DNA of 64,000 nt from Candidatus Woesearchaeota archaeon (GCA_038891615.1 JAWADY010000002.1:96001-160000), one strand, 5' to 3'; shown: positions 9,476 through 26,705, counted from the first letter of the stretch. Notes: generated by a model not told the origin, from the sequence alone. Translations and numbers: made by a program.

Positions 9476-11746
9476 TTATCCAATCGCGAATTCCTTTTTA
9501 ATACTCCTCTTGAGCCACTCATTCCATTCGAAAAATATTCTTTCTGTATCAAGCCTTCCAACTTCCTCAAGTATCTTATCCGAGATGTTGTGGAAGGCAT
9601 CATTTGCAGTTATAACAAACTTTGCCTCAAGAATGTCTGGTCTTTTGAGAGCTCTGGCTGTCTCAACCAGCGTTTCTTTGATTCTTGCTCTTAAGTTTAT
9701 GTTCTCCCACACTGCATCCCAGTTGCCAGCCCATTCTTTTACATTTGAAGCAATTGCCTTTAGCACATCGCTGTCGCCAGCAAGAAGGTCTTGTGTTGGC
9801 TGCAGCGTGTCTGTGCGCACATCGTATCTCATCAAATCAACGAAACCTTTCTCTGCAAGAGGGTCTTCTTCCCAAAACTTTCTTACTTCTGTGATTTGGG
9901 TTATCCTTCTCCACCTATGCAGGCCATCTGGACTTCTTATCGGATTTGCCACAACAATGAGATCTGTCGCCTTAAAGGATGTTCTTGGAACACCAAGGTC
10001 ATTAACAACTCTATCAAAGACACCGTACGGGCTGTCGCCGTGAATCGTTCCAGCAACGACATTTGCGAGGGCACCAACTCTCATTGCTTCGTAGAGCGCG
10101 CGAGCCTCAACAGACCTTACTTCTCCTATGATAAGGCTGCTGTCTCCCAGCCTAAGTGTTGTACGCAAGCCTTCTTCTGCAGGCACTTCTGTTGTTCCAC
10201 GGGTCAATGCGCTGGCTACCTTCATAGATTGAATGTTGTAGCCAAGCTCGCGCAGAGAGCTAACTGGTAACTCAAGTGTATCTTCTATGGTCAATACTCT
10301 TATCCTGCGCATTATCTCTGTCATAAGCGATGCCAGAAAAGATGTTTTTCCTGCAGATCTTGTACCTGCGATTAGCATTGTTCGCGCGCCATCGATGCAA
10401 AAGCTCAGAATGCCTGCGCCAAGAGGGCTAATCATTCTGTTTTCTATGAAAAGTGGAAGAGTCCATGGCTTGTCGCGATGCCTCCTGAAGCTATACGCAA
10501 TACCTGTTGGGTTCAATGGAGCTGTTATTGCCGCAATCCTTGCACGCGCTCTTGGTATAATAAGTTCTGTATCAAGAATTGGATTTGCCTCATCAAAAGG
10601 CCTATTCGAGAGAAGTCTCAGCTTTGAGGCCCAGCTTTCAGCCTCGCTTGCTGTTGGCACAATGTTTGTCATGCAGTCAGCATAATCAGCCTGTACAACA
10701 AATATTGGAATCCTGCCCATGGGACTGTTAACCGAGATATCCTGTATTTTTTCATCCTGAAGAAGAACTTCAACAAGTCCAAAGCCAACTGTGTACCTCA
10801 CTAGGATGTTTGCAAGCTCCTGCAGTTCTTTTTCTCGAAGTTTCAGGCCGCGATACTCCGCAAGTTCCTCAAGAAGGTCAGAACCAATCCGCTCAAAAAC
10901 CTGCCTCATACGCTCCGGGTCTACGAACTCTGAGCGTTTTGGCTTGTGTTCTACGATAATATTTCTCGCAGAATCAAGGAGCTCATACTTCTCCTCACTA
11001 AGCTTGAATTCTGGAGGAATAATATGATAAAGGTATTGTACCGTGTTCGGTAGGGAAAAGATGTTGACTTCTGTTCCATTTACAATGTAGCTCTCAAGCA
11101 GCTCTGCATCCGGCGGAAAGCTTGACATTAGTTTGGTAAACATAAAGTCTGGCTTTATTGTCGGCGAAAATATTCTTCTATAAATGTCCCTCTCGCCAAC
11201 CTTGTATCCTGCTAATTGCTCTTTTGCAAGCTTGATGAGTGTTGTTTGTTGGAGTAAGCCAAGTGCGTCCTCCACTGCCTTAAGATAGCGCTGCAGGCAC
11301 CTCTGGCCTTCGGGAGAGGCATGCTTAAGATATTCTCTTTCTCGTCTTGCAATGCGCTCCAGCTCAACATAAGCTCCCACAGGATCGCTTTTTAGCATTG
11401 TATGTAGGATTGACTGCAGCTCTGTGTATCTCCTTGTTAACCATTTCAAGCACGTCATATCAGATAAGAAGCCATACGCCAATCTTCTGCGTAGCAGCTC
11501 CTTGTACGCAATTGCTATCTCATTAAGTATTGCTGTTTGAGTGCCATCATATTCATAATCGCGCTTTTGCACAAAAACAATTCTTGTAACTGTGCCAACC
11601 TCTGCAAGAATGTCAATTGTCATTGACATTGTTTTTGGAGAATCTTCAATTGAGGGAAAAAATGTGCAGGCCTCTGCATCTATTCTAAGAATTATCTCCT
11701 CACCTTCTCTTATAATCTCGTAGCTGAAACAACCTCTATCAGGCAT
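9476..11746 (-). CDS. Type II/IV secretion (VirB11/CpaF/FlaI family) ATPase with long N-terminal extension
   Basis: GTRSAGKTS Walker A, TIEDTLEL Asp box, LIIGEVR Walker B, GTIHG His box, RRITQITE. GGAGG SD before ATG 11746. Confidence 0.92.
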   Translation of the reverse strand: MPDRGCFSYEIIREGEEIILRIDAEACTFFPSIEDSPKTMSMTIDILAEVGTVTRIVFVQKRDYEYDGTQTAILNEIAIAYKELLRRRLAYGFLSDMTCLKWLTRRYTELQSILHTMLKSDPVGAYVELERIARREREYLKHASPEGQRCLQRYLKAVEDALGLLQQTTLIKLAKEQLAGYKVGERDIYRRIFSPTIKPDFMFTKLMSSFPPDAELLESYIVNGTEVNIFSLPNTVQYLYHIIPPEFKLSEEKYELLDSARNIIVEHKPKRSEFVDPERMRQVFERIGSDLLEELAEYRGLKLREKELQELANILVRYTVGFGLVEVLLQDEKIQDISVNSPMGRIPIFVVQADYADCMTNIVPTASEAESWASKLRLLSNRPFDEANPILDTELIIPRARARIAAITAPLNPTGIAYSFRRHRDKPWTLPLFIENRMISPLGAGILSFCIDGARTMLIAGTRSAGKTSFLASLMTEIMRRIRVLTIEDTLELPVSSLRELGYNIQSMKVASALTRGTTEVPAEEGLRTTLRLGDSSLIIGEVRSVEARALYEAMRVGALANVVAGTIHGDSPYGVFDRVVNDLGVPRTSFKATDLIVVANPIRSPDGLHRWRRITQITEVRKFWEEDPLAEKGFVDLMRYDVRTDTLQPTQDLLAGDSDVLKAIASNVKEWAGNWDAVWENINLRARIKETLVETARALKRPDILEAKFVITANDAFHNISDKILEEVGRLDTERIFFEWNEWLKRSIKKEFAIG

Positions 11747-11860
11747 GTGAAGTCCTCCCACCTCTTTGAGCAAAGGTTTTTAGCACTTTGACATGGTTAC
11801 ACAATTTATTATCCTGCTAAGCAAAACCTTATTAAAGCAAATTTATAAGCTTTTGCAAAA

Positions 11861-13177: not shown

Positions 13178-13305
13178 CTTCATAGTGCATTTCGTTGGGC
13201 ACTTTTGCGCCCAAATCATTGCAGCTTATCTAAATTTTTATGAGATTTTAATTTTTAAAGGCGAGAACAGTTATATTTTTAAACAGCCTCCATCTCTTTT
13301 GTTGA

Positions 13306-14499
13306 ATGCTAATTGGTCTTGTTGGTAAGCCTTCTGCTGGCAAAAGCACTTTCTTTAAGGCACTAACTCTCGCGGAAGTTGCCATTGCACCGTATCCTTT
13401 CACCACGATAAAACCAAATGAGGGCGTTGGTTTTGTTCGAGTTGATTGTGTTGAAAAGGAATTTGGGGTTGCCTGCAATCCTCGCGAGGGTTATTGTAGC
13501 AATGGCATTCGTTTTGTTCCAATCAAATTGATGGATGTTGCCGGGCTTGTGCCAGGCGCGCATCTTGGGAAAGGACTTGGGCTTCAATTTCTTGACGACC
13601 TTAGGCAGGCAGAATGCCTTATACATATTGTTGATGCTTCTGGAAGCACGAATGAAAAAGGCGAGGTTGTTGCTCCAGGGAGCTACGACCCTTCATATGA
13701 CATAAAATTTCTTGAGCATGAGCTTGACATGTGGTTTCTTGAAATCATAAAGCGTGGTTGGGAAAAGGTTGCCAAGCTATCTCAACAGACAAAAAAAGAA
13801 GTTTCTACAATTCTTGCAAGACAACTCTCTGGTTTGAATGTGAGTGAAGAGCTTGTCAGGGAACTTATATCAAAACTTGGTCTAGACCCTCTTTCTCCCA
13901 TGTCCTGGAGCGAAGAAGTTCTTCACAGCCTTGCTATTGATCTTCGTAAAAGGACAAAACCCCTACTCATCGCAGCAAACAAGGCAGACATTCCTGAATC
14001 TGAAAAGAATATAAAGAGGATGGTTGAGCTCTTTCCAGATAAGGAAGTGGTTCCATGCTCTGCAGAAGCAGAGCTCGCGCTCAAAGAAGCAGCAAAGGCA
14101 GGTTTAATAAAATACTTGCCAGGCAGCAGTGATTTTGAAGTTGTTGGAAAGCTTAACGATAAACAGGCCGCTGCACTTGAATTTATTAGACAGAATGTGC
14201 TTAAAAAGTACGGAAGTACGGGTGTACAACAAACTCTTGATGATGCTGTATTCAAACTTCTTGGTTACATTGCAGTATTTCCTGGTGGTGTAAACAAACT
14301 TGCAGACCAATTTGGGCGTGTTCTTCCGGATTGTTTTCTCATGCCAAAAAACAGCACAGCACTTGACTTTGCATTCAGAATTCATACAGATCTTGGAAAG
14401 GCGTTTGTAAGAGCAGTTGATGTGCGCTCGAAAAAAACAATTGGTAAAGACTATTTGCTAAAGCACAGGGATGTCATTGAGATTGTTGCAAAGGCATAG
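13306..14499 (+). CDS. ychF: Obg-family YchF-like ATPase/GTPase, archaeal type, with TGS domain
   Basis: GKPSAGKST, YPFTTI, DVAGLVPGAH.GKGLG, NKAD and C-terminal TGS (IHTDL). Confidence 0.93.
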   Translation: MLIGLVGKPSAGKSTFFKALTLAEVAIAPYPFTTIKPNEGVGFVRVDCVEKEFGVACNPREGYCSNGIRFVPIKLMDVAGLVPGAHLGKGLGLQFLDDLRQAECLIHIVDASGSTNEKGEVVAPGSYDPSYDIKFLEHELDMWFLEIIKRGWEKVAKLSQQTKKEVSTILARQLSGLNVSEELVRELISKLGLDPLSPMSWSEEVLHSLAIDLRKRTKPLLIAANKADIPESEKNIKRMVELFPDKEVVPCSAEAELALKEAAKAGLIKYLPGSSDFEVVGKLNDKQAAALEFIRQNVLKKYGSTGVQQTLDDAVFKLLGYIAVFPGGVNKLADQFGRVLPDCFLMPKNSTALDFAFRIHTDLGKAFVRAVDVRSKKTIGKDYLLKHRDVIEIVAKA

Positions 14500-14543
14500 T
14501 TGCAAAACTTTCAGCCCCTTCAAAACGCATTTGTCAGACCCAT

Positions 14544-15665
14544 CTAAACTTTGAAAAGCCTTTCATGCAGCTTGCTAAAAGCTTTTAATCGCTCAAGAAA
14601 TCGGTGCCATGCGCGCCTAGGAATACGCGCTCCCGCTGCCGGGATGTGGCCTCCAGCTGCTGCTTGAGCAATCCCTCGCACAGCCCGGTCAAGGAGTGCA
14701 TTAACCTTTACTTTTTTGTCACTCCTTCTTCCGCTGACATCCCACCAGCCATCAGCACGCCGATAAACGATGAGCGTACGGTGAGGGTGCCTAAAGGCTG
14801 CTATTGTGCTAAGCGTAGAAGAGATTTTGAGTGGTGAACTTGCATCATAAAAAACTATTTCTCCAGGAGGAGTATTTCTCACAGCAATGTCAAACCTTTT
14901 TAAGTGGCCCTTCAACTCATCATTCATTTTCTTTGTAATGAGTTTGAATGCGTTTATAATCTCCAAAGGGCTCTTTGCATCATAGACAACCTTCCAACAT
15001 TTTTTTACACCATCTTTGCTGTACTTTATTGCTGATTGGATTGCATTGGCCGCCTTTCCAAAAGCACTCCTCCACACATCCTTTCCAATCCTAAGTCTTT
15101 TTTTGGCCGCAGCCTTTTGAACAAAGCCCTTCCAACAATTATAACCTGCATCCGCAACAATTCCTATTGCTGCAATCCAATCAAACGAAGAAATGTCAGC
15201 AACGGTCATTCCAAAATCGTATGCAAGTTTTGAGCTGCAATAGCTCGCAGCCTCTTTTGTTGAGAAAAGCTGCGGTTTTATCAAAAGACCATTTTTAATT
15301 GTTTTTGAGTACAAAGGGTGATGGTCAAGGATAAGAAGCCTTGCAAAACTTGAGATGCTTTTTACGATATTCTTTAGTTGATCAAGCGCAAGGTCTGTTG
15401 TTATAACCATGCTAATCCTTGCTCTTTTTAGTTTTGAAATTGTTGCTTTGTTTGGTCTTCGTTCAGGTTCTGAAATAACAAGTTCTGGTGACCTTCCCCT
15501 CACCGCTTCAATGAGTTTCGAAATGATTACTGCAGAGCACAGCCCATCAGGGTCTGCATCATGAATTATTGCAACCCTTCTTCCTCGTGTTGAAGCAAGG
15601 AATCTTACAAAGCTACTCTCCAGCCTTTCACGAACCTTTTCAAGCGATTTATGCTTTCTTGTCAT
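14544..15665 (-). CDS. DHH/DHHA1 family phosphoesterase (RecJ/NrnA-like)
   Basis: HDADPDG, TDL, LDHH, GIVAD and GGHIPAAGA motifs. Confidence 0.9.
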   Translation of the reverse strand: MTRKHKSLEKVRERLESSFVRFLASTRGRRVAIIHDADPDGLCSAVIISKLIEAVRGRSPELVISEPERRPNKATISKLKRARISMVITTDLALDQLKNIVKSISSFARLLILDHHPLYSKTIKNGLLIKPQLFSTKEAASYCSSKLAYDFGMTVADISSFDWIAAIGIVADAGYNCWKGFVQKAAAKKRLRIGKDVWRSAFGKAANAIQSAIKYSKDGVKKCWKVVYDAKSPLEIINAFKLITKKMNDELKGHLKRFDIAVRNTPPGEIVFYDASSPLKISSTLSTIAAFRHPHRTLIVYRRADGWWDVSGRRSDKKVKVNALLDRAVRGIAQAAAGGHIPAAGARIPRRAWHRFLERLKAFSKLHERLFKV

Positions 15666-15729
15666 ATCCTCTCTTGCGTTTGAACGCAAATATGCCAAAA
15701 TGACAGCTTGTCAACTCTTGGCAGTGCTT

Positions 15730-16116
15730 TCAAGAATCACTGCCTTTTTTTCTCATACGCTCAAAAGTCGCAGCGATATCAATTATGTACTTCCCATCAG
15801 CAACTTTAAATATCAATGGCTCATTTTTAAAAAGCCTTACGAGGTCTAGTTCGTACTTTCCTGGCTTCAGAACATTAATGCTCTCCAAGTCAAGCACAAC
15901 TGGTTTTTCTGGCTCTTCAAGTCCTATAATTTTGAAGATGTCAGATTCGATTTCTTTCTTTTCCTTTTCTGAAAGAGGGCTCGCTGGCCCTTCTGGTTGC
16001 TTCAGCTTTTCTTTCTTTATGAAAAAGAAAAGCTTCCCACCACAGGAACAACCCTTTAGTATCGCAGAAGAGCCATCATCGTAGAACGTATTGCACCGTA
16101 CGCATTGGTGTGGCAT
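15730..16116 (-). CDS. Zn-ribbon protein, DUF2072 (OapC/ArvC-like)
   Basis: MPHQCVRC…ILKGCSCGGKLFFF and ESINVLKPGKYELDL. Third gene of the GTPase trio. Confidence 0.88.
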   Translation of the reverse strand: MPHQCVRCNTFYDDGSSAILKGCSCGGKLFFFIKKEKLKQPEGPASPLSEKEKKEIESDIFKIIGLEEPEKPVVLDLESINVLKPGKYELDLVRLFKNEPLIFKVADGKYIIDIAATFERMRKKGSDS

Positions 16117-16119
16117 TTG

Positions 16120-16500
16120 CTATCTTTTTTTCCTCTTTTCTTGTGTAAAAAGTTCAATTTTGTGAGGGTCTTTCTTTATCTTCTTGACTATGCTGGCTGG
16201 CCCGATTATGGTCATTCCCTGCCTGTTTCCCAAAAGAAAGCTAAGGACGTTTTCGCGGAATTTCTTAATTCCTGAGAAGTTGCCTTGTTGAGGATTTATA
16301 ACTGCAAGCTCTATCCCTTTGAAATCCTTATTTATCTCTTCCATTGTTGCTTTTATAAGTTCAGCCTCTTCGTCCTTCGATAATCTCCCCTGAAAAAGAA
16401 CTATCTTGTCTTCTTTTGCGACATTTAACAACTTTCTTATTCTTCCAACAGAGCTAAGCTGTTCAAGCTCACTATATGGAATGAATTGCAGGGTCACCAT
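16120..16500 (-). CDS. DUF2073 family protein (OapB/ArvB-like)
   Basis: EEAELIKATMEEI…FKGIE and GMTIIGPA signature. Lies between the GTPase and the Zn-ribbon gene. Confidence 0.88.
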   Translation of the reverse strand: MVTLQFIPYSELEQLSSVGRIRKLLNVAKEDKIVLFQGRLSKDEEAELIKATMEEINKDFKGIELAVINPQQGNFSGIKKFRENVLSFLLGNRQGMTIIGPASIVKKIKKDPHKIELFTQEKRKKR

Positions 16501-16501
16501 C

Positions 16502-17140
16502 TTATTTTCTCAGAAGCTCGTATAATTTTTCATAAAACTCGTTAATGTTCTTGCCATATTTTGCAGATATGCCAATAACATCGTATTGAGGAAAGGCTGT
16601 CTGAACCCTTTTCAGCTTGGCACGCTTGAGGTCTATCTTGTTTGCAGCGATTAGCACAGGTATTTTTCGAGCAGCAAGGTTCCCAACTATTGTTATGTTA
16701 ACTTGTGAATAAGGGTCCTGAGTTGCATCTAATACGAGTACAACCCCGTCAACATCATCCAGCCACTTTATTGCTTCTATCACTCCTTTTGTTGCTTCGC
16801 GCGCCCTGCGCTTCGCTTTTGATTCAGGCAGCCCACTTTTGATGAAATCCTCATAATCTATTCTTGTTGCAATCCCTGGCGTATCAACAAGACTAAATTG
16901 CAGTTCCTTGCCCTTCTTTAGTTTTATTACAATTCGCTCTTTTACATTGACCTCTCTTGTTTCGTGCGGAACTGGACTGACCTTTCCCATTTCTTTGCCA
17001 ATCCAGTCCAAGCATATCTTGTTCGCAAGAGTTGTTTTCCCTGAATTTGGAGGACCATAAAGGCCAAGTTTAAGGGACTGTCTTCTTTTGAAAAGCTCGC
17101 CAAAAAGACCTCCGAAAACGCTCTTCAACAGCTTTAACAT
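16502..17140 (-). CDS. Small Era-like GTPase (OapA/ArvA-like)
   Basis: GPPNSGKTTLAN, PHETR, DTPG, ANKIDL and ISAK. Amphipathic N-terminal helix. Confidence 0.9.
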   Translation of the reverse strand: MLKLLKSVFGGLFGELFKRRQSLKLGLYGPPNSGKTTLANKICLDWIGKEMGKVSPVPHETREVNVKERIVIKLKKGKELQFSLVDTPGIATRIDYEDFIKSGLPESKAKRRAREATKGVIEAIKWLDDVDGVVLVLDATQDPYSQVNITIVGNLAARKIPVLIAANKIDLKRAKLKRVQTAFPQYDVIGISAKYGKNINEFYEKLYELLRK

Positions 17141-17236
17141 CTCTGCACCGCTTTTGCAATAAACAAAATAGGTTTTTATTTAAAACTTTCTAAAGAGAAA
17201 AATAAAAACTCAAGGCAAGAGAAGAAGTCAAATGCT

Positions 17237-17464
17237 TTAGCGACCCCGCGCCATCTTTGCCCTTGAGATATCTCCCTTTTTGTCAATGAAATAAAGATAA
17301 CCTGGCTCTTTTTTGACTCCAACTTTCGCGACAAGCTCAGGCTTTCCTCCACGCCCCTTCCTGCCCCGTGCCATCTTGACCCTACTGACATTTCCCTTTT
17401 TGTCAACAAAATAAAGATATCCTTCTGCTTTTTTGACACCAACTTTTGCAACCTTTTCAGCCAT
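17237..17464 (-). CDS. Small basic protein made of two tandem near-identical repeats (putative nucleic-acid-binding)
   Basis: VAKVGVKKxxGYLYF(V/I)DKKG(N/D)(V/I)SRxKMARGR occurs twice. The duplication is also visible in the DNA. GGGGGTTG SD upstream. Confidence 0.85.
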   Translation of the reverse strand: MAEKVAKVGVKKAEGYLYFVDKKGNVSRVKMARGRKGRGGKPELVAKVGVKKEPGYLYFIDKKGDISRAKMARGR

Positions 17465-17555
17465 TTTCAACCCCCTTTAATTTTCTTTTCAAATCGACGA
17501 TAAAAGCGTCTTTGAAGCAAGAAACAGTTCTAGTTTATAAAGTTTGCGTCTTTCT

Positions 17556-17780
17556 TCATCCCTTACTTTTGCGTGCTTTCATTCGTGGTTTTAGGTGGGC
17601 TATTTTGTGCCTCTCTTTTCCAAGGTACCATACAGGTCTCAAAAGCTTCTGAAGTTTTGCAGCAGTTTCGAGAGATTCTGTATACTCTCTAAATATTTTC
17701 TTTCTACTATGTGGTATAAGTGGTTCTATCTTTTTTGCTTCTGCAAGTGCCAACTCAACGATAGACCTCTTTTTTGCCAT
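17556..17780 (-). CDS. Small basic hypothetical protein
   Basis: 74-aa ORF with TTTTTATA and GAGG upstream. Confidence 0.6.
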   Translation of the reverse strand: MAKKRSIVELALAEAKKIEPLIPHSRKKIFREYTESLETAAKLQKLLRPVWYLGKERHKIAHLKPRMKARKSKG

Positions 17781-17868
17781 TTCCTCAAATCTTAGCCTTG
17801 TATCTTTTGTATAAAAATGCTTCGGCGAAAGGCATTTATATCCTCCAGCCGTTCTTGAGGTGGGGAAA

Positions 17869-19059
17869 ATGAAATTTGCACATCTTGCAGACTGTCATAT
17901 CGGTGGATGGCGTGAGCCTGTTCTCCGTGAACTGAACAACAGAGCATTTTCAGAAGCTGTTGCGCGATGCCTTGCAGAAAAGGTCGACTTTGTACTCATA
18001 GCAGGAGACCTTTTTAACACCTCACTGCCTGCACTTGATAGTCTTAGGAGCGCTGTTGCTGGCCTTCGCGAACTGAAGGAAGCTGGAATTCCAGTTTATG
18101 CAGTTCCTGGTAGCCATGACTATAGCCCAAGTGGCAGGACGATTGTTGATGTGCTTGAGAGTGCAGGGTTGCTTGTCAATGTTGTAAACGAAGAAGCAAA
18201 TTTTGTCGTAGATAAAAAGACTGGAGCAAAGCTCATAGGACTTCCTGGTTGGAAGGGTGGGCTTGACCAATCACTCTTCTCTTCAATTGACAAAAGTGCA
18301 CTTGAGGCTGAAAAAGGTTTCAAGATCTTCCTATTCCACACGACGGTGAAGGAGCTGATAACAAAAGATTTTGAAATGATTCCATCTGTGCCAGCTTCAG
18401 CTTTTCCAGAAGGGTTTGACTATTATGCAGGTGGTCACATTCACATTGTCAGCAGGCACAGGTTTGGGAAGGGGTTTATGGTCTATCCAGGGCCGCTCTT
18501 TCCGAACAACTTTTCAGAGCTTGAGAAGCTGGGAGCGGGAGGATTTTTCGTATATGAAGATGGCAAGCTTGAGCATGTAAGACTCGAGCTCTGTCCTGTT
18601 CGGCCTTTAGTCTTGGATTGCAATCACAAACGGCCAGCTGAGATTTGCCAGGAGATTGCACACAGGATAGACCAGCTTGAGCTTAAAGGGGCCTTGCTGC
18701 TTGTCAGGCTTTATGGAAGCCTGGCTGGGAAATCTACAGAGATTCCTTTTAACGAGTTGTTTGCACGCGCATACGAGAAGGGTGCACTCTTTGTTCTCAA
18801 GAATTCTCATCAGCTCATAAACGAAGAACTTGCAAAGACCGAAACTGTTTCGGGAACTGTTGAGGAAATAGAACAGAGTGTGATTGAAAGCTTTTCAGGA
18901 AAAGGCCCTTTTACAAAGGAAAAAGAACGCCAGCTTCTTGCCGCCATTATGCAGGTGCTTTCTGCTGAAAAAGCCGAGGGTGAAACTACTGTTGATTTTG
19001 AGACAAGACTGAAAAAAGCCGTTGCAGGGGTCTTAGGCATAACACAGGAGGCACACTAA
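17869..19059 (+). CDS. mre11: Mre11/SbcD-family DNA repair exonuclease
   Basis: ADCHIG, AGDLFN, PGSHD, FHT, DYYAGGHIH and YPGP metallophosphoesterase motifs. Confidence 0.88.
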   Translation: MKFAHLADCHIGGWREPVLRELNNRAFSEAVARCLAEKVDFVLIAGDLFNTSLPALDSLRSAVAGLRELKEAGIPVYAVPGSHDYSPSGRTIVDVLESAGLLVNVVNEEANFVVDKKTGAKLIGLPGWKGGLDQSLFSSIDKSALEAEKGFKIFLFHTTVKELITKDFEMIPSVPASAFPEGFDYYAGGHIHIVSRHRFGKGFMVYPGPLFPNNFSELEKLGAGGFFVYEDGKLEHVRLELCPVRPLVLDCNHKRPAEICQEIAHRIDQLELKGALLLVRLYGSLAGKSTEIPFNELFARAYEKGALFVLKNSHQLINEELAKTETVSGTVEEIEQSVIESFSGKGPFTKEKERQLLAAIMQVLSAEKAEGETTVDFETRLKKAVAGVLGITQEAH

Positions 19060-19067
19060 GAAAATTT

Positions 19068-20378
19068 CTATGGGCTTTTTCTAAGCATTGTTCGTGGAAA
19101 GGGTATTGCATCTTTTATGTTGTCAAGTCCACAAATCCACGATATGACGCGCTCGATGCCCATCCCAAATCCAGAATGTGGAACAGAGCCATAGCGTCTT
19201 GTGTCAAAATACCATTCGTAATGTTCTGGATGTTCGCCGCTCTTTTTTAGCGCTTCTTTCATTGCATTGATGTCAAGGTCTCGTTGCGAGCCTCCAATTA
19301 TCTCGCCGTACCCTTCAGGCGCGAGCATGTCAAAACAGAGTGCCGTCTTAGGATCTCTTGGGTCTGCTGGCTTATAAAATGCCATTATCTCCTTTGGATA
19401 GTTCGTTACGATGAGAGGCCTGTCAAAATGCTTCATTATTTTGTTCTCTTCAATTGTCCTCAAGTCCTTGCCCCACTGCACTACCAATCCTTCTTTTTTC
19501 TTCAAAAGCTCAAGGACTTGTGTATATGTAAGCCTAGGAAAAGGTGTTTTTACCTTTTTGAGCTTCGACAGTTCTTGCCCAAGCTGTGTTAGTTCTGAGC
19601 TGTTTTCCTTTAACACAGCCTTTACAACGTGCTCAACGAGCTCTTCGGCTTGTTTAATAGCTCCGTCCAAGTCCTGCCACGCTGTTTCGACCTCTGCCAT
19701 CCAGAACTCTGCAAGGTGTCTCGAGGTTTTGCTCCGTTCTGCTCTAAAGCATGGACTAATTGTGAATATCTTTTCAAGTCCAAAAATTCCTGCCTCTGCA
19801 TAAAGCTGCCAACTTTGAGTAAGGTATGCAATGTCGTCAAAGTATTTTAGCTGGAAAAGGGTTGCTCCCCCTTCGCAAGCAACTGGGGTTATTATAGGTG
19901 GAGACCATTCGTAGTAGCCTCGCTCATAGAAATAATCTCGTACCGCCTTGAGGATGGTTGAGCGAATCTTAAGGATGTTTGTTAGCTTTCTACTTCTTAA
20001 CCAAAGATGCCTCACATCGAGGAGAAACTCCTGACTAAGATCCTTTGCTATTGGGAATCTCTCTGCAATATGAACAATTTTCAGGTCTGAAACTTTTAGC
20101 TCGTATCCTGTTGGAGCCCTTTCATCTTTTACAAGCTCGCCCTCAACAATAAGCGAGCTTTCCATTGTTACCTTTTCCGCATTACTGAATAACTCCTTTG
20201 GCACATTTTCTTTCTTGACAACACATTGTATGATGTTGGAGCTATCTCTTAAAACAATAAACACTTTGTCCGCAAACTTCCTTTCGCGATAGCACCAGCC
20301 TCTAAGCCTAACCTTTCCTTTACCTTTTTCAAGTGCTTCTTGTATCGAAATAATGCCGTCTTTTTCAGCTACTGCCAT
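19068..20378 (-). CDS. asnS: Asparaginyl-tRNA synthetase
   Basis: OB fold, RHLWLRS, YLTQSWQLY, FRAERSKTSRHLAEFWM, GEIIGGSQR and YGSVPHSGFGMG. Confidence 0.94.
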   Translation of the reverse strand: MAVAEKDGIISIQEALEKGKGKVRLRGWCYRERKFADKVFIVLRDSSNIIQCVVKKENVPKELFSNAEKVTMESSLIVEGELVKDERAPTGYELKVSDLKIVHIAERFPIAKDLSQEFLLDVRHLWLRSRKLTNILKIRSTILKAVRDYFYERGYYEWSPPIITPVACEGGATLFQLKYFDDIAYLTQSWQLYAEAGIFGLEKIFTISPCFRAERSKTSRHLAEFWMAEVETAWQDLDGAIKQAEELVEHVVKAVLKENSSELTQLGQELSKLKKVKTPFPRLTYTQVLELLKKKEGLVVQWGKDLRTIEENKIMKHFDRPLIVTNYPKEIMAFYKPADPRDPKTALCFDMLAPEGYGEIIGGSQRDLDINAMKEALKKSGEHPEHYEWYFDTRRYGSVPHSGFGMGIERVISWICGLDNIKDAIPFPRTMLRKSP

Positions 20379-20424
20379 TTTTCCTTTAAATTAAAGAACT
20401 CTTTTAAAGTTTTCCAGTCGTTCG

Positions 20425-21732
20425 TCAGGGCACAACTCGTTCTGGGTCCCTTGGAAATAGCACTCCTTCTCGGATGTTTCCAAGCCCAAGTATGTTTTTT
20501 ACAAGTCTGTCAATGCCAAGCCCGAAACCGCCATGTGGAGGCATGCCATAGCGGAATGCTTCTAGATAAAATGCAAAATCCTTCGGGTCTAGCCCTTTAC
20601 CTTTCATCTGCTCAACAAGCTGGATGTAGCGATGTTCGCGTTGCCCTCCTGAAGCAAGCTCCTCTCCACCATACTCGAAGTCAAAGCTCCGTGACAGTCC
20701 ATTCTCTGCCATTATGTAGAAAGGTTTTATCTTGAATGGAAACTTTGTGATAAAGTACGCCTTTGTGCCGTACCTTTTTTTCACAAGTTCTCCCAAAAGC
20801 TTTTCGTCTTCTGCCCCTATGTCCTCGTCTTCTTTTATCTTTGAGCCAGCTTCCTTGAGCATGTCCAAGGCTTCGCTGTACCTTATCCTTGGAAATGGAA
20901 GCTGAGGAGGCTCCAAGTGAATATCAAAAAGGCCCAGCTCACGCGCGAATTCAGATTTTATTTTTCCAATAACAAAAACAAACAACCTTTCAAGAAGTCT
21001 TAGCACATCCTCTTCATCTTTTATGAATGCCATTTCGAGGTCAAAATGCGTGAACTCTGTGAGATGTCTCGTTGTATGCGATTTTTCTGCCCTAAAGCTT
21101 GGCCCTATCTCAAAGACCTTGTCAAAGCCCGAAGCAAGCACAGCCTGTTTGTACAGCTGCTGGCTTTGACTCAGAAAAACTTTTTTGCCATAGTAATTTA
21201 CTTGGAAAAGGGTTGCTCCTCCCTCTGCCCCTGCACTTATGAGTTTTGGCGTTTGTATTTCAATAAAACCCTCTGAGTTAAGGAAAGCGCGGATTGCAGC
21301 ATTTAGTCCTGAACGTATTTTAAAAATTGCCAGGTTTTTTCGGTTTCTTAGATCAAGTAGTCTGTTGTCAAGCCTTTTGTCAAGGCCAGTAGGAATCTTC
21401 CCGGAGAAGTCGATTGGAAGCACTGGTTCGCTTTTACTTATTACCTCAAACTTTTCAAGAACAAGCTCTTTTTCTCCAGATTTGAGCTTTGACTCAGCCA
21501 TTTTCCCCTCTGCAACGATTACAGATTCCTTTGGGATCTTTTCAAGCTCAGACATTTTTTCAAAATCTGGAAGAGCTGTTAGCTGAATCTCCCCTTCCCT
21601 ATCACGGAGCCTGACAAAAGCAATCTTTCCAATGCGTTTTATGTCAGCCGCCCACCCTGCTACTACAACTCGTGTTCCAGCAGCCTTTTTCAGCGCCTCG
21701 CTTGAATAAATCCTTCTTGCTAGATCTATCAT
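20425..21732 (-). CDS. aspS: Aspartyl-tRNA synthetase, archaeal type
   Basis: RLDNRLLDLR, EGGA, QSQQLYKQ, FRAEKSHTTRHLTEF, ELASGGQREH and YGMPPHGGFGLG. Confidence 0.94.
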   Translation of the reverse strand: MIDLARRIYSSEALKKAAGTRVVVAGWAADIKRIGKIAFVRLRDREGEIQLTALPDFEKMSELEKIPKESVIVAEGKMAESKLKSGEKELVLEKFEVISKSEPVLPIDFSGKIPTGLDKRLDNRLLDLRNRKNLAIFKIRSGLNAAIRAFLNSEGFIEIQTPKLISAGAEGGATLFQVNYYGKKVFLSQSQQLYKQAVLASGFDKVFEIGPSFRAEKSHTTRHLTEFTHFDLEMAFIKDEEDVLRLLERLFVFVIGKIKSEFARELGLFDIHLEPPQLPFPRIRYSEALDMLKEAGSKIKEDEDIGAEDEKLLGELVKKRYGTKAYFITKFPFKIKPFYIMAENGLSRSFDFEYGGEELASGGQREHRYIQLVEQMKGKGLDPKDFAFYLEAFRYGMPPHGGFGLGIDRLVKNILGLGNIREGVLFPRDPERVVP

Positions 21733-22325
21733 TTTTTCCGTCCTCTGCTTCTGCCTTTGAGCCTGAGCTTCAATGCAAGGTCTTCAAGTTTTTCCAGCCC
21801 ATATTTCAGGCTATCAAACTTTTTTCTTAAAGGTTGGTTTCTAAAATCAAATAGGGTCAGTTGTTCATGAATCCCTTCAACAAATGCCTTTATCTCAAGC
21901 GCAGACCTTTCATTGCCTTTTATCACAGAATTTATGGCTTTTCGCACAAGCTCGCCCACCATATCACAAAGTCCTAGAAGATATATATCTATGTCAACGC
22001 CAAGTTCTTTGGGAGAGAAAAGTCGCTTCTCACTCGCCCAGCCATAGTAGCAGGAAGCCTCAACATACTCTTCCAGAGCCTCTGCATAAGCACCAATCAT
22101 TGCAAGATGTTTGTCACCCTTTACAAGGCTTTCTGCCTCTTTTATTCTGCTTTTTGCAACCCTTAGTGCAGCTGCTGCCGAAGCGAGGTCTTCTCTATGA
22201 AGTGCATAAATTGCCTTTTTGCTTTCCTTTAGAATATCTCTTGATTTCTTTATAAGCTCTTCGCGGGCATAATCAAAAGCCTCTAGCTTCTGCCTCATGA
22301 GCTCAAAAGTCTTTTTGTCAATCAT
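21729..22325 (-). CDS. Translin/TRAX (C3PO) family protein
   Basis: REELIKKSRD, EEYVEA, YLLGLCDMVGELVR and LRKKFDSLKY. Confidence 0.9.
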   Translation of the reverse strand: MIDKKTFELMRQKLEAFDYAREELIKKSRDILKESKKAIYALHREDLASAAAALRVAKSRIKEAESLVKGDKHLAMIGAYAEALEEYVEASCYYGWASEKRLFSPKELGVDIDIYLLGLCDMVGELVRKAINSVIKGNERSALEIKAFVEGIHEQLTLFDFRNQPLRKKFDSLKYGLEKLEDLALKLRLKGRSRGRKK

Positions 22326-22444
22326 TACTGTAGTTTGTGAGCGCAGCCCTTTTAAATCTATTGCCACGCACTGCTCTGAAACAAAGAAAAGGTTTATATA
22401 CTCTCATTCTTCAAAAAAGCAAAAAAGAGAGGTTAAAAAACCTG

Positions 22445-22996
22445 ATGGCCGCGACTGTTCTTGGAAATGTCATTGAGTTTTTTAATAGAATAGGAATTTA
22501 CGATGTCGTGCTACCCTTTCTTCTCGTTTTCACAATTGTTTTTGCAATCTTTGAGAGAACAAAGGTTCTTGGAACAGAAAAGATTGATGGGGAAGTTGTT
22601 ACAAAAAAGAACCTTAATGCAATGGCTGCCTTTGTAATTGCATTTTTTGTAGTAGCTTCAGGCCAGGTTGTGGAGACAATCACAAAGGTTTCTGCAAACA
22701 TGGTTGTTCTTCTCTTTCTTGTGATATTCTTCCTAATGCTTGTTGGCACACTTTACAAAGAAGGAGAATTTGTTGAAAAGGGACTTGAAGGCTGGCCAAG
22801 AAATGTCTTTATTATAGTTCTTACCCTTGGAATCATTCTTGTTTTCCTAGACGGAATAAAAGCAGCTGACGGTCGGAGTTGGTTACAGGTTGCAACAGAT
22901 TACCTTCAGCTGAACTGGTCCTCACCTGCTGTTGCCTCAGTAGTGCTCATCCTTCTCGTCATATTCATAATAAACTGGCTAACAAAGGGTAAGTAG
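22445..22996 (+). CDS. Uncharacterised membrane protein, paralog M1
   Basis: About five hydrophobic segments. N-terminal motif DVVLPFLLVFTIVFAIF…KVLG…NAMAAFVIA. Confidence 0.85.
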   Translation: MAATVLGNVIEFFNRIGIYDVVLPFLLVFTIVFAIFERTKVLGTEKIDGEVVTKKNLNAMAAFVIAFFVVASGQVVETITKVSANMVVLLFLVIFFLMLVGTLYKEGEFVEKGLEGWPRNVFIIVLTLGIILVFLDGIKAADGRSWLQVATDYLQLNWSSPAVASVVLILLVIFIINWLTKGK

Positions 22997-23005
22997 GTGA
23001 TGCAA

Positions 23006-23572
23006 ATGATTTTTCGGCTTCAATTTGGGCCTTATGGCATAGGTTTTAGGGACCTTTTTTATAGACTGCAGGTTTTGGGCGTGTTTGATGTTCTGATACC
23101 TTTTGTTCTAATCTTCACCATTCTTTATGCAGTCCTTCAGAAAGTAGGAGTGTTCAAAGAGAAGAAGTTCAATATTCTCATCTCGCTTGCAATAGCTCTT
23201 CTCGTAGTTGTCCCTCATGTTGTTGGAGGCTATCCTGCTGGCTTTGATGTAGTTGAAATCATAAACCGCTCGCTCCCGCAAATAGCCTTCCTCCTCATAG
23301 CTTTTGTTCTTTTTCTCATAATGGTTGGGCTTGTCTGGAAGCCACAGAAGGGAACGGAACTTGTGTTTCAAGGGGCTCTTGTTCCAATCATTGTTGCGCT
23401 TATTCTCTTTTTCATCTTTAGCAGTGCGATTTATCAGCAAGCCATTCCGAACTGGCTTTGGTGGATTCTTGATCCAACCTTGCAGATGTTCGTTGTGATT
23501 TTGCTGATATTCGGGCTTGTTGTGTGGTTTGTGACAAGCGGAGCAAAGGAAGAAAAAGAGGGAAAAGATTAA
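23006..23572 (+). CDS. Uncharacterised membrane protein, paralog M2
   Basis: DVLIPFVLIFTILYAVL…KFNILISLAIA. GGTGA SD overlaps the M1 stop. Confidence 0.85.
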   Translation: MIFRLQFGPYGIGFRDLFYRLQVLGVFDVLIPFVLIFTILYAVLQKVGVFKEKKFNILISLAIALLVVVPHVVGGYPAGFDVVEIINRSLPQIAFLLIAFVLFLIMVGLVWKPQKGTELVFQGALVPIIVALILFFIFSSAIYQQAIPNWLWWILDPTLQMFVVILLIFGLVVWFVTSGAKEEKEGKD

Positions 23573-23587
23573 AAGAGCTAGTGAAAT

Positions 23588-24151
23588 ATGGCAACCCTGC
23601 TTGACCTAGGCCTTGTGAGAACTTTTGACGCCCTGTTTCCTTTCCTTTTTGTCTTTGTTGTTGTTTATGGCGTCCTAAGCTACACAAAACTTCTTGGCGA
23701 GAACAAAAGTGTACATGCAATAATTGCATTTATACTTGCCATAGCCGCCCTATTCTCCCGCATTGCTCTAAAGACAATAACCCTCATGGCCCCATGGTTC
23801 GTTATTCTTTTTGTTTTCGCGATATTTGCAATAATGACTTATCAGCTCTTTGGTGTTAAAGAGGAAGAGATATCTGGACTTTGGAAAAAGTGGACAGCTG
23901 GTGGTAGCACCATCTTCTATTGGTTATTGGCACTCATACTTATGATAGGACTTGGCTCGTTGTTCACTGTCCTGCGCGAAGAAAGGGCACCACCTTTTTT
24001 CATCCAAAATGCCACTGTTACTCCAGGCATTCCAGAAGCCCGGATTAGCTTTTGGTCAACAGTATTCCATCCAAAAGTTCTTGGAGCCGCACTTCTTTTC
24101 TTGATAGCATTGTTCGCCATAAAGAGCCTCACAGAGCTTCCAAAGAAATAA
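23588..24151 (+). CDS. Uncharacterised membrane protein, paralog M3
   Basis: DALFPFLFVFVVVYGVL…KLLGENKSVHAIIAFILA. Confidence 0.85.
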   Translation: MATLLDLGLVRTFDALFPFLFVFVVVYGVLSYTKLLGENKSVHAIIAFILAIAALFSRIALKTITLMAPWFVILFVFAIFAIMTYQLFGVKEEEISGLWKKWTAGGSTIFYWLLALILMIGLGSLFTVLREERAPPFFIQNATVTPGIPEARISFWSTVFHPKVLGAALLFLIALFAIKSLTELPKK

Positions 24152-24166
24152 CCTTAAATTGTGAAA

Positions 24167-24772
24167 ATGGTAGAAATAATAGATCGGTATTCTCGTTTTG
24201 GCAAAAATCTCTTAAAAATCACAAGTTTTGTATTGGGCTACAAGGATGTTTTTTCTTTAGAAAAACTAATCACTCTTATTCACGAGTGGCTCGTTGAGGA
24301 AGGCTATGCAACACGGGATGATGAGAAGTTTGGTGAGGTGTTTTATTTGCAAAAGGACAACCCTGTTGCAGGCAATGAGTACTGGATTCGTTGGAGGCTT
24401 GAGAAAACCCCCTTTCAAACAAAGCTTTGGAAATATCTTCTTGATATCGATATACACGTTCTTGGATTAAAAAAAGTTGAGCTTGTTGCCGGAGGGAAAA
24501 AGCTTGAAGCAGATAAGGGAAAGGTTGAGATTGCTGCAGACTTTGGCTTACTTCTTGACCCACAAAATTTGCTTGAGGCTCCGGTTATTAAACCATTTAA
24601 AATGCTTGTGCTAAAGGGCTTTCTTAAGGCGCAGTTTTCAAAGCACAAAGAAGCAGTCTTCACTGATGCTCAAAGGCTTCAAGATATGTTAAAATCCTAT
24701 CTCCGTCTTGAGACCTACTTGACTGAAAAAGGGCTTCCGGAATTCCTTGGCAAAAGGCCGGAGGCAAGATAA
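24167..24772 (+). CDS. Uncharacterised soluble alpha/beta protein, paralog S1
   Basis: YKDVF…W…GY…E…KKVELV.GGKK…GKVEI…LLLD pattern, shared with S2 and S3. Confidence 0.85.
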   Translation: MVEIIDRYSRFGKNLLKITSFVLGYKDVFSLEKLITLIHEWLVEEGYATRDDEKFGEVFYLQKDNPVAGNEYWIRWRLEKTPFQTKLWKYLLDIDIHVLGLKKVELVAGGKKLEADKGKVEIAADFGLLLDPQNLLEAPVIKPFKMLVLKGFLKAQFSKHKEAVFTDAQRLQDMLKSYLRLETYLTEKGLPEFLGKRPEAR

Positions 24773-25273
24773 ATGGTAGTGAAGATAGACATACCAGTTT
24801 CAATTATACGCTATGCTGGGCTTTTTCAAAAGGAAAAACTGCTTAGAACAGTTCGTGGCTGGCTTCTTTCAGAGCGCTATCTCTTTAGTGAGCCAAAGCA
24901 TAAGTACAGCAGCTCTCCAACTGGTGCAACATTAGAGGTGCGGTTTGAAGGCGATAGAAAGGTAACAAGCTATGTGCGCTTCAAAATTGTTGTAGATATT
25001 CTGATTAATGAAATGAAGGATGTACAAGTTGTCAAGGATGGCATTCAAACAGTCCTTCAAGAAGGAAAAATACTTATCGAAACAAAGGGCACTTTGGAAT
25101 TGGATTGGCAAAATCGTTTTGGAGGTTCAAAATTTCTTCAGGGCTTACACGACTTTTATCTAAAGTACATAATAAAGAAAAAAATTGATGAAGTATGGTG
25201 GGGAGCTCTTTATTCCAAAATATTTAAATTGAACTCAGTCATTAGAGAAGCAATAGGCTTTGAAACAGTCTGA
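24773..25273 (+). CDS. Uncharacterised soluble alpha/beta protein, paralog S2
   Basis: YAGLF…W…Y…EPKH…KDVQVVKDG…GKILI…GTLELDWQNRF. Start abuts the S1 stop. Confidence 0.85.
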   Translation: MVVKIDIPVSIIRYAGLFQKEKLLRTVRGWLLSERYLFSEPKHKYSSSPTGATLEVRFEGDRKVTSYVRFKIVVDILINEMKDVQVVKDGIQTVLQEGKILIETKGTLELDWQNRFGGSKFLQGLHDFYLKYIIKKKIDEVWWGALYSKIFKLNSVIREAIGFETV

Positions 25274-25283
25274 GGTCGCTCTG

Positions 25284-25799
25284 ATGCCAGAACGCGAGAC
25301 AATTGTTGACAAAGAACGGTTAGAGTATGAAGGACCATTTGAGCTTTCTGCTTTTTATCAGCTTCTCCAGAGCACAATTGCTGAGCTTGGTTATGGCGTA
25401 AGGGAAAGAAAGCATTCCGAAGCGGTTTCGAAGGAAGGAAAGCTAATCTATCTTGAGCTAGAGTGTAGAAAGGTGCTATCAGAGGACTATGCTAGAGCTC
25501 TTATTCTGCTAAATGTTCAGCTTATAAATGTCAAAGACATCGTTGTTGAGGGCAAAAAATATCAGACAGGAAAGATTAGCATTGTTCTTGATGGCATCCT
25601 TGAAACAGACTATGAAGGAAGATGGGAGGAAAAGCCGCTTCTTCTCTTTCTCAGGACTCTTTATGACAAATTTATTTTTAAAACAATAACTGGTGGATAC
25701 GATAGAATAATCCGAGAAGATGCAAATAGGCTGAAAGACATTGTCAGTGCATTCTTTAACATTTCTGCCTTTAGGGTGCCTCAACGTGCCTCTGCCTAA
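25284..25799 (+). CDS. Uncharacterised soluble alpha/beta protein, paralog S3
   Basis: YEGPF…GY…ERKH…KDIVVEGKK…GKISI…GILETDYEGRW. GAGGT SD. Confidence 0.85.
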   Translation: MPERETIVDKERLEYEGPFELSAFYQLLQSTIAELGYGVRERKHSEAVSKEGKLIYLELECRKVLSEDYARALILLNVQLINVKDIVVEGKKYQTGKISIVLDGILETDYEGRWEEKPLLLFLRTLYDKFIFKTITGGYDRIIREDANRLKDIVSAFFNISAFRVPQRASA

Positions 25800-25868
25800 A
25801 CTCTTGGAAATGTTTTTAAACAGTTGTTTTAGAAAGCTATTCTGAGATAGAGCTGCCTAAAAGCTGAC

Positions 25869-25952
25869 GCCTCCGTAGCTCAGTAGTGGAGCGACTGCCT
25901 TGTATCTGTGCAAGAAAGCAGTAGGTCAGGGGTGCGAATCCCCTCGGAGGCT
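25869..25952 (+). tRNA. tRNA-Thr(TGT) with a 12-nt intron at the canonical 37/38 position (25905-25916)
   Basis: Acceptor GCCTCCG/CGGAGGC. Removing TCTGTGCAAGAA restores ACTGC-CTTGTAA-GCAGT. T-loop variant TGCGAAT. Confidence 0.9.
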
Positions 25953-26051
25953 TCATTCTTATTTAACCAGCCGCAGGAAAACTTCATATTCTCTTTAAGC
26001 TTTGCTAAGCTTTCAAAATGTTTATATAACAAAAGAGGTGCTCAATATTTT

Positions 26052-26705
26052 ATGGAAACAAGCAAATGCGGCAGGTTTATTGTTCTTGATGGCATTGATG
26101 GTTCTGGAAAGAGCATGCAAGCAAAGGCACTCGCTTGTTACCTTTTTGACAAATCAAAAGAGTACAATGTCCTTCTCACGCGCGAGCCTTTTAATTCAGA
26201 CTATTGTGCTGAAATTCGTAGGCTACTCAAGGAAGGAAAAACTCCTTATGAAAACGCCGAGAAGCTCACAGAACTTTTTGTTGCTGACAGAAAACTTCAT
26301 GCTGGCCTGATAGCAAAGTGCCTTTCTGCAGGCGTTCATGTTGTGTCGGACAGGTATAAGTATTCAACCTTTGCGTACCAACAAGCGCAAGGCTTAAACC
26401 TAGACCGCCTGATTGAAATGCACGCTTCTTTGCTTGTTCCTGACATTGCAATAATTATTGATATTCCTGCCAAAGTTGCACTCGAGCGCATCAAGGACAG
26501 CCCTAAAAGGTCATATTACGAGGTTTTTGAAGCTCTTTCCTTTCAAGAGGTCCTACGGCAGAACTTTCTATCACTTCGCAAGAGCTTACCAAATGAGCGG
26601 ATTGTGATTATTGATGGAAACAAGCCTGCAGTTGAGGTCTTTGAATCGATAAGGAAGGAAGTGGACAAGCTGTATGGCTCTTGTGGTCAAAAGAAACTTT
26701 TATAA
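26052..26705 (+). CDS. tmk: Thymidylate kinase
   Basis: DGIDGSGKS, TREP, LFVADR, SDRY.YST.AYQ. Start moved to ATG 26052 because the longer ORF overlaps the tRNA. Confidence 0.94.
   Translation: METSKCGRFIVLDGIDGSGKSMQAKALACYLFDKSKEYNVLLTREPFNSDYCAEIRRLLKEGKTPYENAEKLTELFVADRKLHAGLIAKCLSAGVHVVSDRYKYSTFAYQQAQGLNLDRLIEMHASLLVPDIAIIIDIPAKVALERIKDSPKRSYYEVFEALSFQEVLRQNFLSLRKSLPNERIVIIDGNKPAVEVFESIRKEVDKLYGSCGQKKLL

Follow-up and report, generated by a model that had tools for sequence, protein, structure and literature searches.

Three membrane-protein and three soluble-protein genes in one row of a woesearchaeal genome: probably two independent conserved modules joined by an inversion

A 64,000-nucleotide stretch of the genome of a Candidatus Woesearchaeota archaeon (GCA_038891615.1, JAWADY010000002.1:96001-160000), hereafter the window, carries six co-oriented open reading frames (ORFs) on the + strand at positions 22445-25799. 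Three of them encode paralogous membrane proteins (M1-M3) and three encode paralogous soluble proteins (S1-S3). The window lies on contig 2 of its own genome (G000), which comprises 661,270 bases in 5 contigs and is 97.9% complete. A first-pass annotation had read the row as one operon for a single new membrane machine. Comparison of the gene neighbourhoods across related genomes points to a different reading, in which two independent conserved modules were probably brought together by an inversion, with the M triplet as a part of the type IV filament (T4F) machine and the S triplet as partners of a CBS-pair protein. The six genes were called and translated as follows.

22445-22996, + strand: M1 (P0001), 183 amino acids (aa), five predicted transmembrane segments
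22997-23572, + strand: M2 (P0002), 191 aa, five predicted transmembrane segments
23588-24151, + strand: M3 (P0003), 187 aa, five predicted transmembrane segments, conserved N-terminus MAT.LD
24161-24772, + strand: S1 (P0004), 203 aa, soluble
24773-25273, + strand: S2 (P0005), 166 aa, soluble
25260-25799, + strand: S3 (P0006), soluble, probable true start at ATG 25284

The gaps from M1 to S2 amount to 0, 15, 9, and 0 nt, respectively, and S2 and S3 overlap by 14 nt when S3 is started at its TTG. The N-termini of orthologs favour ATG 25284 for S3, which leaves a 10-nt gap to S2, and ATG 24167 for S1. The tight, co-oriented spacing described in the first-pass annotation was thereby borne out. Kyte-Doolittle scans gave five hydrophobic segments for each of M1-M3, in agreement with the helices of the M1 model, and none for S1-S3 (166-203 aa). 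Contigs from 4 hot-spring metagenome runs of 2 studies, which may include the source sample, cover positions 21700-26000 with the M3/S1 junction contiguously and with zero differences. The six-gene arrangement is therefore not an assembly artefact.

The ancestral layout was followed by tblastn of 24 window genes against the corresponding regions of two relatives, G001:C7:1-30000 and G004:C1:197000-230000. In both, the genes for prolyl-tRNA synthetase, the platform protein, the secretion ATPase, and two coiled-coil proteins (cc166 and cc237) are followed by M3, M2, and M1, which lie on the opposite strand to cc237 and are convergent with it. After M1 come translin, an aminoacyl-tRNA synthetase, a metallophosphoesterase, GTPase2, OapB, OapC, DHH, and an Obg-like GTPase, and then S1, S2, and S3. 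In the window exactly the segment from M3 to the Obg-like GTPase is inverted (13306-24151, 10.8 kb), while the equivalent segment in G001 and G004 spans 18-21 kb. The inverted segment is delimited by these features.

13178-13305, no strand: left inversion junction, between cc237 and the Obg-like GTPase, from gene order against G001 and G004
13306-14499, + strand: YGR210/Obg-like GTPase (PF08438, 6e-38), first gene of the inverted segment
24152-24160, no strand: right inversion junction, 9 nt from the M3 stop to the S1 start

G001 and G004 keep the uninverted order, and a single inversion of about 10.8 kb accounts for the derived row of the window, in which M precedes S. With the former upstream region of S1-S3 lost at the 24152-24160 junction, the S genes of G000 would depend for their transcription on the M promoter or on signals within M3, and M and S may be co-transcribed in this genome. 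The OapC and OapB genes (PF09845 and PF09846) were found inside the inverted segment at window positions 15730-16500; a replication origin may lie close to them and might be relevant to the inversion of this segment.

Conserved linkage of M and S had been set beforehand as the test of a joint unit, and it was not found. The order-level set comprised G000 and 40 relatives (41 genomes, 39 of them with both M and S), and the set from other orders comprised 42 genomes (39 with both) and 5 further ones, giving 44. M and S were adjacent in 3 of the 39 order-level genomes (G000, G003, and G020) and in 0 of the 44 from other orders. In G020 the two triplets are co-oriented as in the window with a different gene 5' of M1, while in G003 S is divergent from M and M is still followed by the coiled-coil genes and the ATPase. 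The distance was 17-24 kb in G001, G004, G006, and G009, 84 kb in G011, and 486 kb in G040, and in the remaining relatives M and S were further apart or on separate contigs. None of the 39 other-order genomes had M and S on one contig, and the closest pair in the 5 further genomes was 54 kb apart. No M gene occurred in 12 S loci whose flanks extend over several kb and no S gene in 12 other-order M loci of 20 kb. Each triplet has instead its own deeply conserved partners.

The partners of the M triplet are four genes that lie on the far side of the left junction in the window.

7258-9447, - strand: platform, a 729-aa polytopic protein (P0019) directly 3' of the ATPase, probably of a diverged TadC/ArlJ/PilC type (T2SSF)
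9476-11773, - strand: secretion ATPase of the FlaI/GspE/CpaF (T2SSE/VirB11) type, 765 aa, with an N-terminal extension of ~245 aa
11861-12361, + strand: cc166 (P0020), a 166-aa cytoplasmic coiled coil with no transmembrane segment
12464-13177, + strand: cc237 (P0021), made up of a small helical domain at the N-terminus, a Pro-rich linker, and a coiled coil at the C-terminus, no transmembrane segment

In the relatives, M3 and a coiled-coil gene of ~230 aa abut at their 3' ends. The latter gene itself follows a coiled-coil gene of ~150 aa, and the pair is divergent from an ATPase gene of ~765 aa. The M triplet was found within 6 kb of the ATPase on one contig in 22 of the 39 order-level genomes with both (21 of 37 when the unpublished G009 and G024 are left out), while in the other 17, whose assemblies are fragmented, they occurred on different contigs. 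The gap between M and the ATPase in other orders was 0.1-2.6 kb in 34 of 39 and 4 of 5 genomes, i.e., 38 of 44. When 12 other-order loci of 20 kb were searched by tblastn with the 24 window genes, only platform, ATPase, cc166, cc237, M3, M2, and M1 were recovered, and none of the loci contained translin, the tRNA synthetases, the GTPases, or S1-S3. Within these 12 loci, the platform adjoined the ATPase in 11 (the twelfth stretch begins just short of the expected site), cc237 was convergent with M3 in 10, as it is in G001 and G004, and cc166 was syntenic with the ATPase and the M triplet in 8. Translin stood beside M1 in 8 of 14 order-level loci and in 0 of the 12, a synteny at the level of the order only.

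The ATPase matched PF00437 (1.5e-12, 47.3 bits against a cut-off of 24.9 bits) and is the sole match in the genome above the Pfam cut-off of that family. Its PDB matches were 2oap (5.5e-24), CpaF (1e-19), and FlaI (1.3e-10), and the NCBIfam models for the TadA family (9.7e-32) and FlaI (7.1e-31) were both matched under their equivalog cut-offs. The platform protein of the window had no Pfam match, and a search of the genome gave no PF00482 match at E <=0.1, although its position and topology are those expected of a platform. Among its orthologs, 6 of 13 matched PF00482 (T2SSF; best 8.3e-5, all below or near the cut-off), and no other family was matched by more than 2 members. Orthologs of cc166 gave only weak matches to coiled-coil families. 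A class III signal (prepilin) peptidase is encoded elsewhere in the genome, at G000:C1:230751-231077 (PF01478, 3.5e-17, 61.9 bits against a cut-off of 26.5), and a scan by regular expression and hydrophobicity alone gave many G000 ORFs with pilin-like N-termini, e.g., at G000:C2:77537-84863.

The candidate class III signal peptide pilins, recognized with an in-house pattern only as short charged N-termini followed by a hydrophobic helix, form runs at C2:77537-84863 (11-18 kb before the window start), C2:60961-73847, and C1:69732-90311. A second, weak T2SSE-like match (19.8 bits, under the cut-off) was located in a 617-aa frame at window positions 57785-58150 (- strand), possibly another P-loop ATPase of the T2SSE superfamily to judge by this match. 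The ATPase match was split in two within frames of 1265-1966 aa in G066, G079, G090, G167, G169, G174, G184, G197, and G022, a pattern suggestive of intein-type insertions at one or two sites. G015 (L032), G014 (L033), and G038 (L041) carry a further, fourth M gene in the form of a tandem copy of M2, so the number of three is not strictly fixed.

The S triplet has a different neighbour. A gene for a protein of ~186 aa with one CBS pair (PF00571, 2.3e-28) was found within 1 kb of S in 20 of the 24 other-order genomes that have both, and in 19 of these 20 it precedes S in the same orientation. It adjoined S in 2 of 4 further genomes inspected by hand and in 5 of the 30 order-level relatives with both. 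The ancestral setting of S would thus be an operon headed by the CBS-pair gene. In the family of the window, S1 is divergent from the Obg-like GTPase; the two adjoin in G001, G004, G007, and G011 (with the adjacency in G001 and G004 confirmed by tblastn) and are two genes apart in G002. Upstream of CBS-S or S, a protein of ~625 aa that combines a lysine-rich N-terminus with a nucleotidyltransferase domain (PF01909, 1.2e-5) was encoded in G028, G039, and G031, from three families of the order (L021:3207-5093, L020:2877-4787, and L016:6264-8147). KA1 domains accompany nucleotidyltransferases in TUT1, and by this analogy the neighbour may be a lead for S.

Both families are close to universal in the phylum sample of 201 genomes (G000 included). 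The M profile matched 198 and the S profile 199 genomes (~99%), mostly with three matches each. M was found with no S match in G073 and G212 and S with no M match in G121, where contig breaks may be the reason, and G092 gave a single weak S match (4.6e-6). The apparent lack of M in G052 and G079 likewise falls at contig ends, as does that of the ATPase in G095. A joint loss of M and the ATPase in G121, tried as support for their link, was dropped as the platform is present at C14:4806-6947 and a contig end may explain the gap. In a large protein collection at least 1746 M matches (among 8000 candidates) and 52 S matches were obtained, all of them unnamed or "hypothetical" and without Pfam domains. 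The matches are hypothetical proteins of Woesearchaeota/Nanobdellota, in line with the statement of the first-pass annotation that similar proteins occur as hypotheticals in other Woesearchaeota and Pacearchaeota.

The two sets of paralogs are diverged, and their similarity lies well beyond chance in alignments of the protein sequences. Profile-profile alignment (hhalign) of ortholog profiles gave 99.6% for M1-M3 (E 2.1e-23, 170 columns) and 99.5% for M2-M3 (E 2e-22), and 99.3, 99.1, and 99.8% for S1-S2, S1-S3, and S2-S3, respectively, while the control of M against S gave 0.1%. BLASTP within a database of the six sequences, to which its E values refer, yielded 1.7e-10 for M1-M2 and 2.7e-8 for M3-M1 as well as 3.8e-8, 1e-5, and 8.5e-5 for S2-S3, S1-S2, and S1-S3. 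The paralogy asserted earlier thus holds when checked with profiles, and the motifs that had been listed for each set are visible in the ortholog alignments. In 35 M1 orthologs the P of the LPF motif is invariant and its flanking L and F are kept in >=90%, and G98 and D111 show hardly any variation in the alignment of S.

None of the six proteins matched a Pfam or NCBIfam model at its cut-off, in line with the first-pass annotation, which had seen no ATPase, catalytic, or known transporter motif; noise below the thresholds included EamA, MprF, FliL, and the sliding clamp, among others. Profile searches of the PDB returned nothing below E 0.07 for M (NuoJ and cytochrome oxidase subunit 2 as noise) and nothing below E 0.96 for S, with no solved START protein matched by sequence. 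For M1-M3 no sequence match at cut-off and no listed fold match to described T4F accessory or pilin families was obtained. The M proteins were rejected as fragments of the platform (1.2% probability for the M profile against it in hhalign) and as pilins (five hydrophobic segments, no conserved [KR]-G/A cleavage motif in the alignment). They were also considered as prepilin peptidases (A24) on account of five transmembrane segments and an acidic residue at the first of them. No PF01478 match was found for M1-M3 and no GxGD-type motif was seen in the alignment, the acidic residue is missing in M3 orthologs, and a separate bona fide A24 gene exists.

The AlphaFold2 (AF2) model of M1 is locally confident, with a predicted local distance difference test (pLDDT) of 91.4 and a predicted TM-score (pTM) of 0.67. 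Foldseek returned nothing for it at E <=0.001, VIA-align matched only a helical hairpin (residues 73-138, Z <=7.1), and the ESM Atlas gave only unnamed Woesearchaeota/Nanobdellota clusters and rows to CitMHS, presenilin, MFS, and others with TM-scores of 0.34-0.38. A positive-inside pattern at loop 1 together with K/E-rich C-terminal tails in the alignment suggests, as read by eye, a topology with the N-terminus outside and the C-terminus inside.

The AF2 model of S2 (pLDDT 90.1, pTM 0.83) has the topology beta-alpha-beta4-alpha of TBP-like/KA1-like domains, with strands and helices at E3-18, H20-33, E37-48, E51-63, E68-88, E91-110, and H120-161. Two helices lie on one face of the sheet as in KA1/TBP-like folds, a likeness of fold only and not of sequence kinship. 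The best VIA-align match was the KA1 domain 5iri_B (Z 10.3, root-mean-square deviation (rmsd) 2.3 Å, 92 of 105 target residues). It was followed by the N-domain of spermine synthase (Z 10.2), the KA1 domain of Chk1 (Z 9.4), the C-terminal domain of AMPK alpha (2y8l_A, Z 9.3), the C-domain of phosphoglucomutase (Z 9.1), and then SRPBCC proteins at about Z 8. Structural rows to DUF1499/DUF6054 had TM-scores of 0.53.

The flanks of the row include three further features.

21729-22367, - strand: translin-family gene (PF01997, 4.1e-30), divergent from M1
22393-22400, + strand: TATA-like TTTATATA, 45 nt 5' of the M1 ATG, a putative promoter element
25869-25952, + strand: tRNA-Thr(UGU) (Rfam RF00005, 57.7 bits), with a 14-nt insertion after the anticodon

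A promoter near 22393 that diverges from translin and an end of the row before tRNA-Thr had both been noted, and the sequence elements were located at these places, with the promoter function of the TATA-like element a putative one. The tRNA, which ARAGORN did not detect, was read as Thr from UGU in the anticodon loop. It is overlapped by the longest thymidylate-kinase ORF (25908-26705); since the Pfam match of that ORF starts only at residue 60, the real start is probably near 26050. Two adjoining class II tRNA synthetase paralogs of the Asp/Asn/Lys type occur at window positions 19068-20378 and 20425-21732, and both map best to one locus of G001 in the 30 kb searched (32 and 62% identity).

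Taken by their neighbourhoods, M1-M3 would work with the T4F machine, because the seven-gene block is conserved across the class: platform and ATPase are divergent from cc166 and cc237, which converge on M3-M2-M1. The orthologous gene order and the constancy of three copies suggest that the M proteins would form a hetero-oligomer, a membrane collar of what appears as the cell's single type IV filament (pilus-like) machine. As the coiled-coil proteins have no transmembrane segment, it is reasonable that such a collar would anchor their scaffold to the membrane around the platform, as ArlX does in the crenarchaeal archaellum. ArlX in crenarchaea and ArlC/D/E in euryarchaea are coiled-coil scaffolds encoded with the ATPase and the platform and are thought to form a ring around the motor, with ArlX anchored in the membrane. 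The proteins cc166 and cc237 resemble them as coiled-coil proteins encoded with ATPase and platform, but unlike ArlX they have no transmembrane segment, and no sequence similarity to a named family was detected. Should this analogy hold, M1-M3 would provide the anchor in trans. The S proteins most likely function together with the CBS protein, with which they would form a cytosolic regulatory complex that responds to adenosyl ligands and is unlinked to M. The earlier idea of a triplicated hetero-oligomer stands in so far as three near-universal copies fit hetero-oligomers, while one joint complex of M and S is not supported; likewise, the M triplet looks like part of a membrane machine, to which S would not belong.

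The gene content of the M locus can be compared with described archaeal T4F systems. In the sections of Makarova, Koonin and Albers 2016 (PMC4858521) that treat it, subclade 4F has loci that carry an intracellular coiled-coil protein, and an ATPase of the 4F clade also occurs in nanoarchaea, where the cognate pilins are given as unidentified. The locus studied here resembles subclade 4F as portrayed there in its VirB11/FlaI-type ATPase beside a putative TadC-like platform, in the adjoining genes for cytoplasmic coiled coils, and in a peptidase and candidate pilins encoded elsewhere, a likeness judged by gene content. Unlike in the T4F systems presented in the main-text passages of PMC4858521 and PMC13705601, the triplet of five-transmembrane proteins is here as constant a neighbour as the coiled-coil genes. 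Those passages describe no such triplet component, and the S10 Fig and S4/S5 tables of PMC13705601 may show loci. More generally, neither triplet is described in the main-text passages of PMC13705601, PMC6393860, PMC4858521, and PMC9258230, whose supplements may hold locus figures. Section 3.2 of PMC5898192 concerns a different system. Four dark-matter families specific to DPANN are reported in the main text of Makarova et al. 2019 (PMC6393860) and could not be mapped to M or S on that text.

On the side of S, the comparison is with the regulatory core of AMPK/SNF1, which comprises the KA1-like C-terminal domain of alpha, the C-terminal domain of beta, and a gamma subunit of CBS repeats. The model of S2 aligns with KA1 domains and the C-terminal domains of AMPK/SNF1 alpha (Z 7.8-10.3), and in most genomes of other orders the S triplet comes after a CBS-pair gene. 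Unlike in AMPK/SNF1, there is no kinase and no sequence similarity, one CBS pair is present and not two, and three KA1-like proteins stand against one alpha and one beta domain. The resemblance is one of parts and not of membership, and the combination of KA1 and CBS is by this analogy a lead and not a result.

Several observations weigh against the division into a filament-associated M module and a CBS-associated S module. The M triplet converges on the coiled-coil genes and is transcribed apart from them, which leaves conserved neighbourhood as the sole link, and the M1 model matches no solved fold, which leaves no structural tie to any pilus component. The flanks in G030, G039, and G020 are long enough to show M away from the ATPase. 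The module is scattered in G092, a single contig of 0.5 Mb and the most divergent genome sampled, with positions of 194, 221, and 246 kb for M-like genes, 257 kb for the platform, and 373 kb for the ATPase; further exceptions were G056/G170 and G215 (7.9 kb). Four M genes and no orthologous ATPase or platform were found in G038, an assembly that is 89% complete. For S, the family of the window never has the CBS gene beside the triplet, and the CBS gene of G000 is on contig 1. The Z values of S2 are middling (the best Z is typically 7-8 for models without a clear match), SRPBCC/START proteins also reach Z 7-8.5, and the Foldseek TM-scores are low (0.27-0.42). Finally, M and S stand together in three genomes of one family and in at least two layouts, and this repeated meeting could hint at some advantage of proximity.

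Part of this evidence would also suit a reading in which the neighbourhoods have no functional meaning, M being a housekeeping membrane complex (a transporter, a lipid or ion handler, or insertase-like) and S being unrelated to the CBS protein. M is transcribed as a convergent unit of its own, it matches no known family of pilus accessory proteins, and G038 keeps it without a detectable ATPase ortholog. M1, the most conserved of the triplet with best matches 36-60% identical in the 40 relatives, is kept even in genomes of 0.5-0.7 Mb, as a core function would be. However, the seven genes persist together (38 of 44) while other synteny is lost between orders, which would be unusual for unrelated genes, and the same argument applies to CBS and S (20 of 24). 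This reading is thus considered rather unlikely.

For S alone, helix-grip proteins of the SRPBCC/START type that bind or transfer lipids, as might serve a symbiont that takes host lipids, were considered and are quite improbable. S2 shares with SRPBCC/START/Bet v 1 proteins an antiparallel sheet and a long C-terminal helix, and Foldseek ranked PYL/START/Bet v 1 first (probability <=0.97, E 8.7e-5). VIA-align gave Z 7-8.5 for the group, which included polyketide cyclases, Ups1-Mdm35 (7.9), SLMO1-TRIAP1 (7.6), and Aster domains (7.1-7.2). The geometric agreement of the Foldseek rows is nevertheless low (TM-scores 0.17-0.31, rmsd 14-17 Å), no family match or sequence match to a solved START protein supports them, higher scores (Z 9.3-10.3) go to KA1 domains and to the C-terminal domain of AMPK alpha, and the conserved partner is a CBS-pair protein and not a membrane or lipid enzyme. 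A single machine of M1-M3 and S1-S3, with a membrane ring and a cytosolic S scaffold from one operon, is the least credible alternative and very improbable: only 9 nt separate M3 from S1 and a single TATA-like element precedes the row, G020 repeats the co-oriented layout and G003 a divergent one, and both families are triplicated and near-universal, but adjacency is confined to 3 of 39 genomes and absent from the other orders (>=54 kb where it could be measured in 5 genomes), the 12 S loci and 12 other-order M loci each stand without the other triplet, G073, G212, and G121 have one family without the other (contig breaks may explain this), and the layout of the window derives from an inversion.

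Beyond the reading as two independent modules, a more specific and speculative joint proposal is made, which is unlikely to hold in full. M1, M2, and M3 would form a heterotrimeric collar of 15 helices, an undescribed class of T4F component in Nanobdellota, and the CBS protein with S would be a prokaryotic, kinase-less counterpart of the AMPK/SNF1 core. The collar, which has the conserved acidic-residue/LPF motif at the start of the first transmembrane segment, is proposed to hold the two coiled-coil proteins at the platform, and it could act as the stator or gate of a filament used to reach hosts.

Woesearchaeota and their relatives are abundant, uncultured, and host-dependent, and for most of their conserved genes no function is known. 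Here, one puzzling "operon" has been split into two families that are each present in about 99% of the phylum sample, and each has been given a testable partner. The row also illustrates that in very small genomes a tight series of genes that shares a promoter can be the product of recent rearrangement and not a functional unit. The M triplet would join a pilus-type machine, which is the most likely tool of host contact, and it is not listed in the main-text passages of the 2016 and 2026 surveys of archaeal T4F systems. The S triplet would join a CBS sensor protein, and if CBS and S are indeed a counterpart of the AMPK/SNF1 core, the long-standing question of the origin of that core would become testable.

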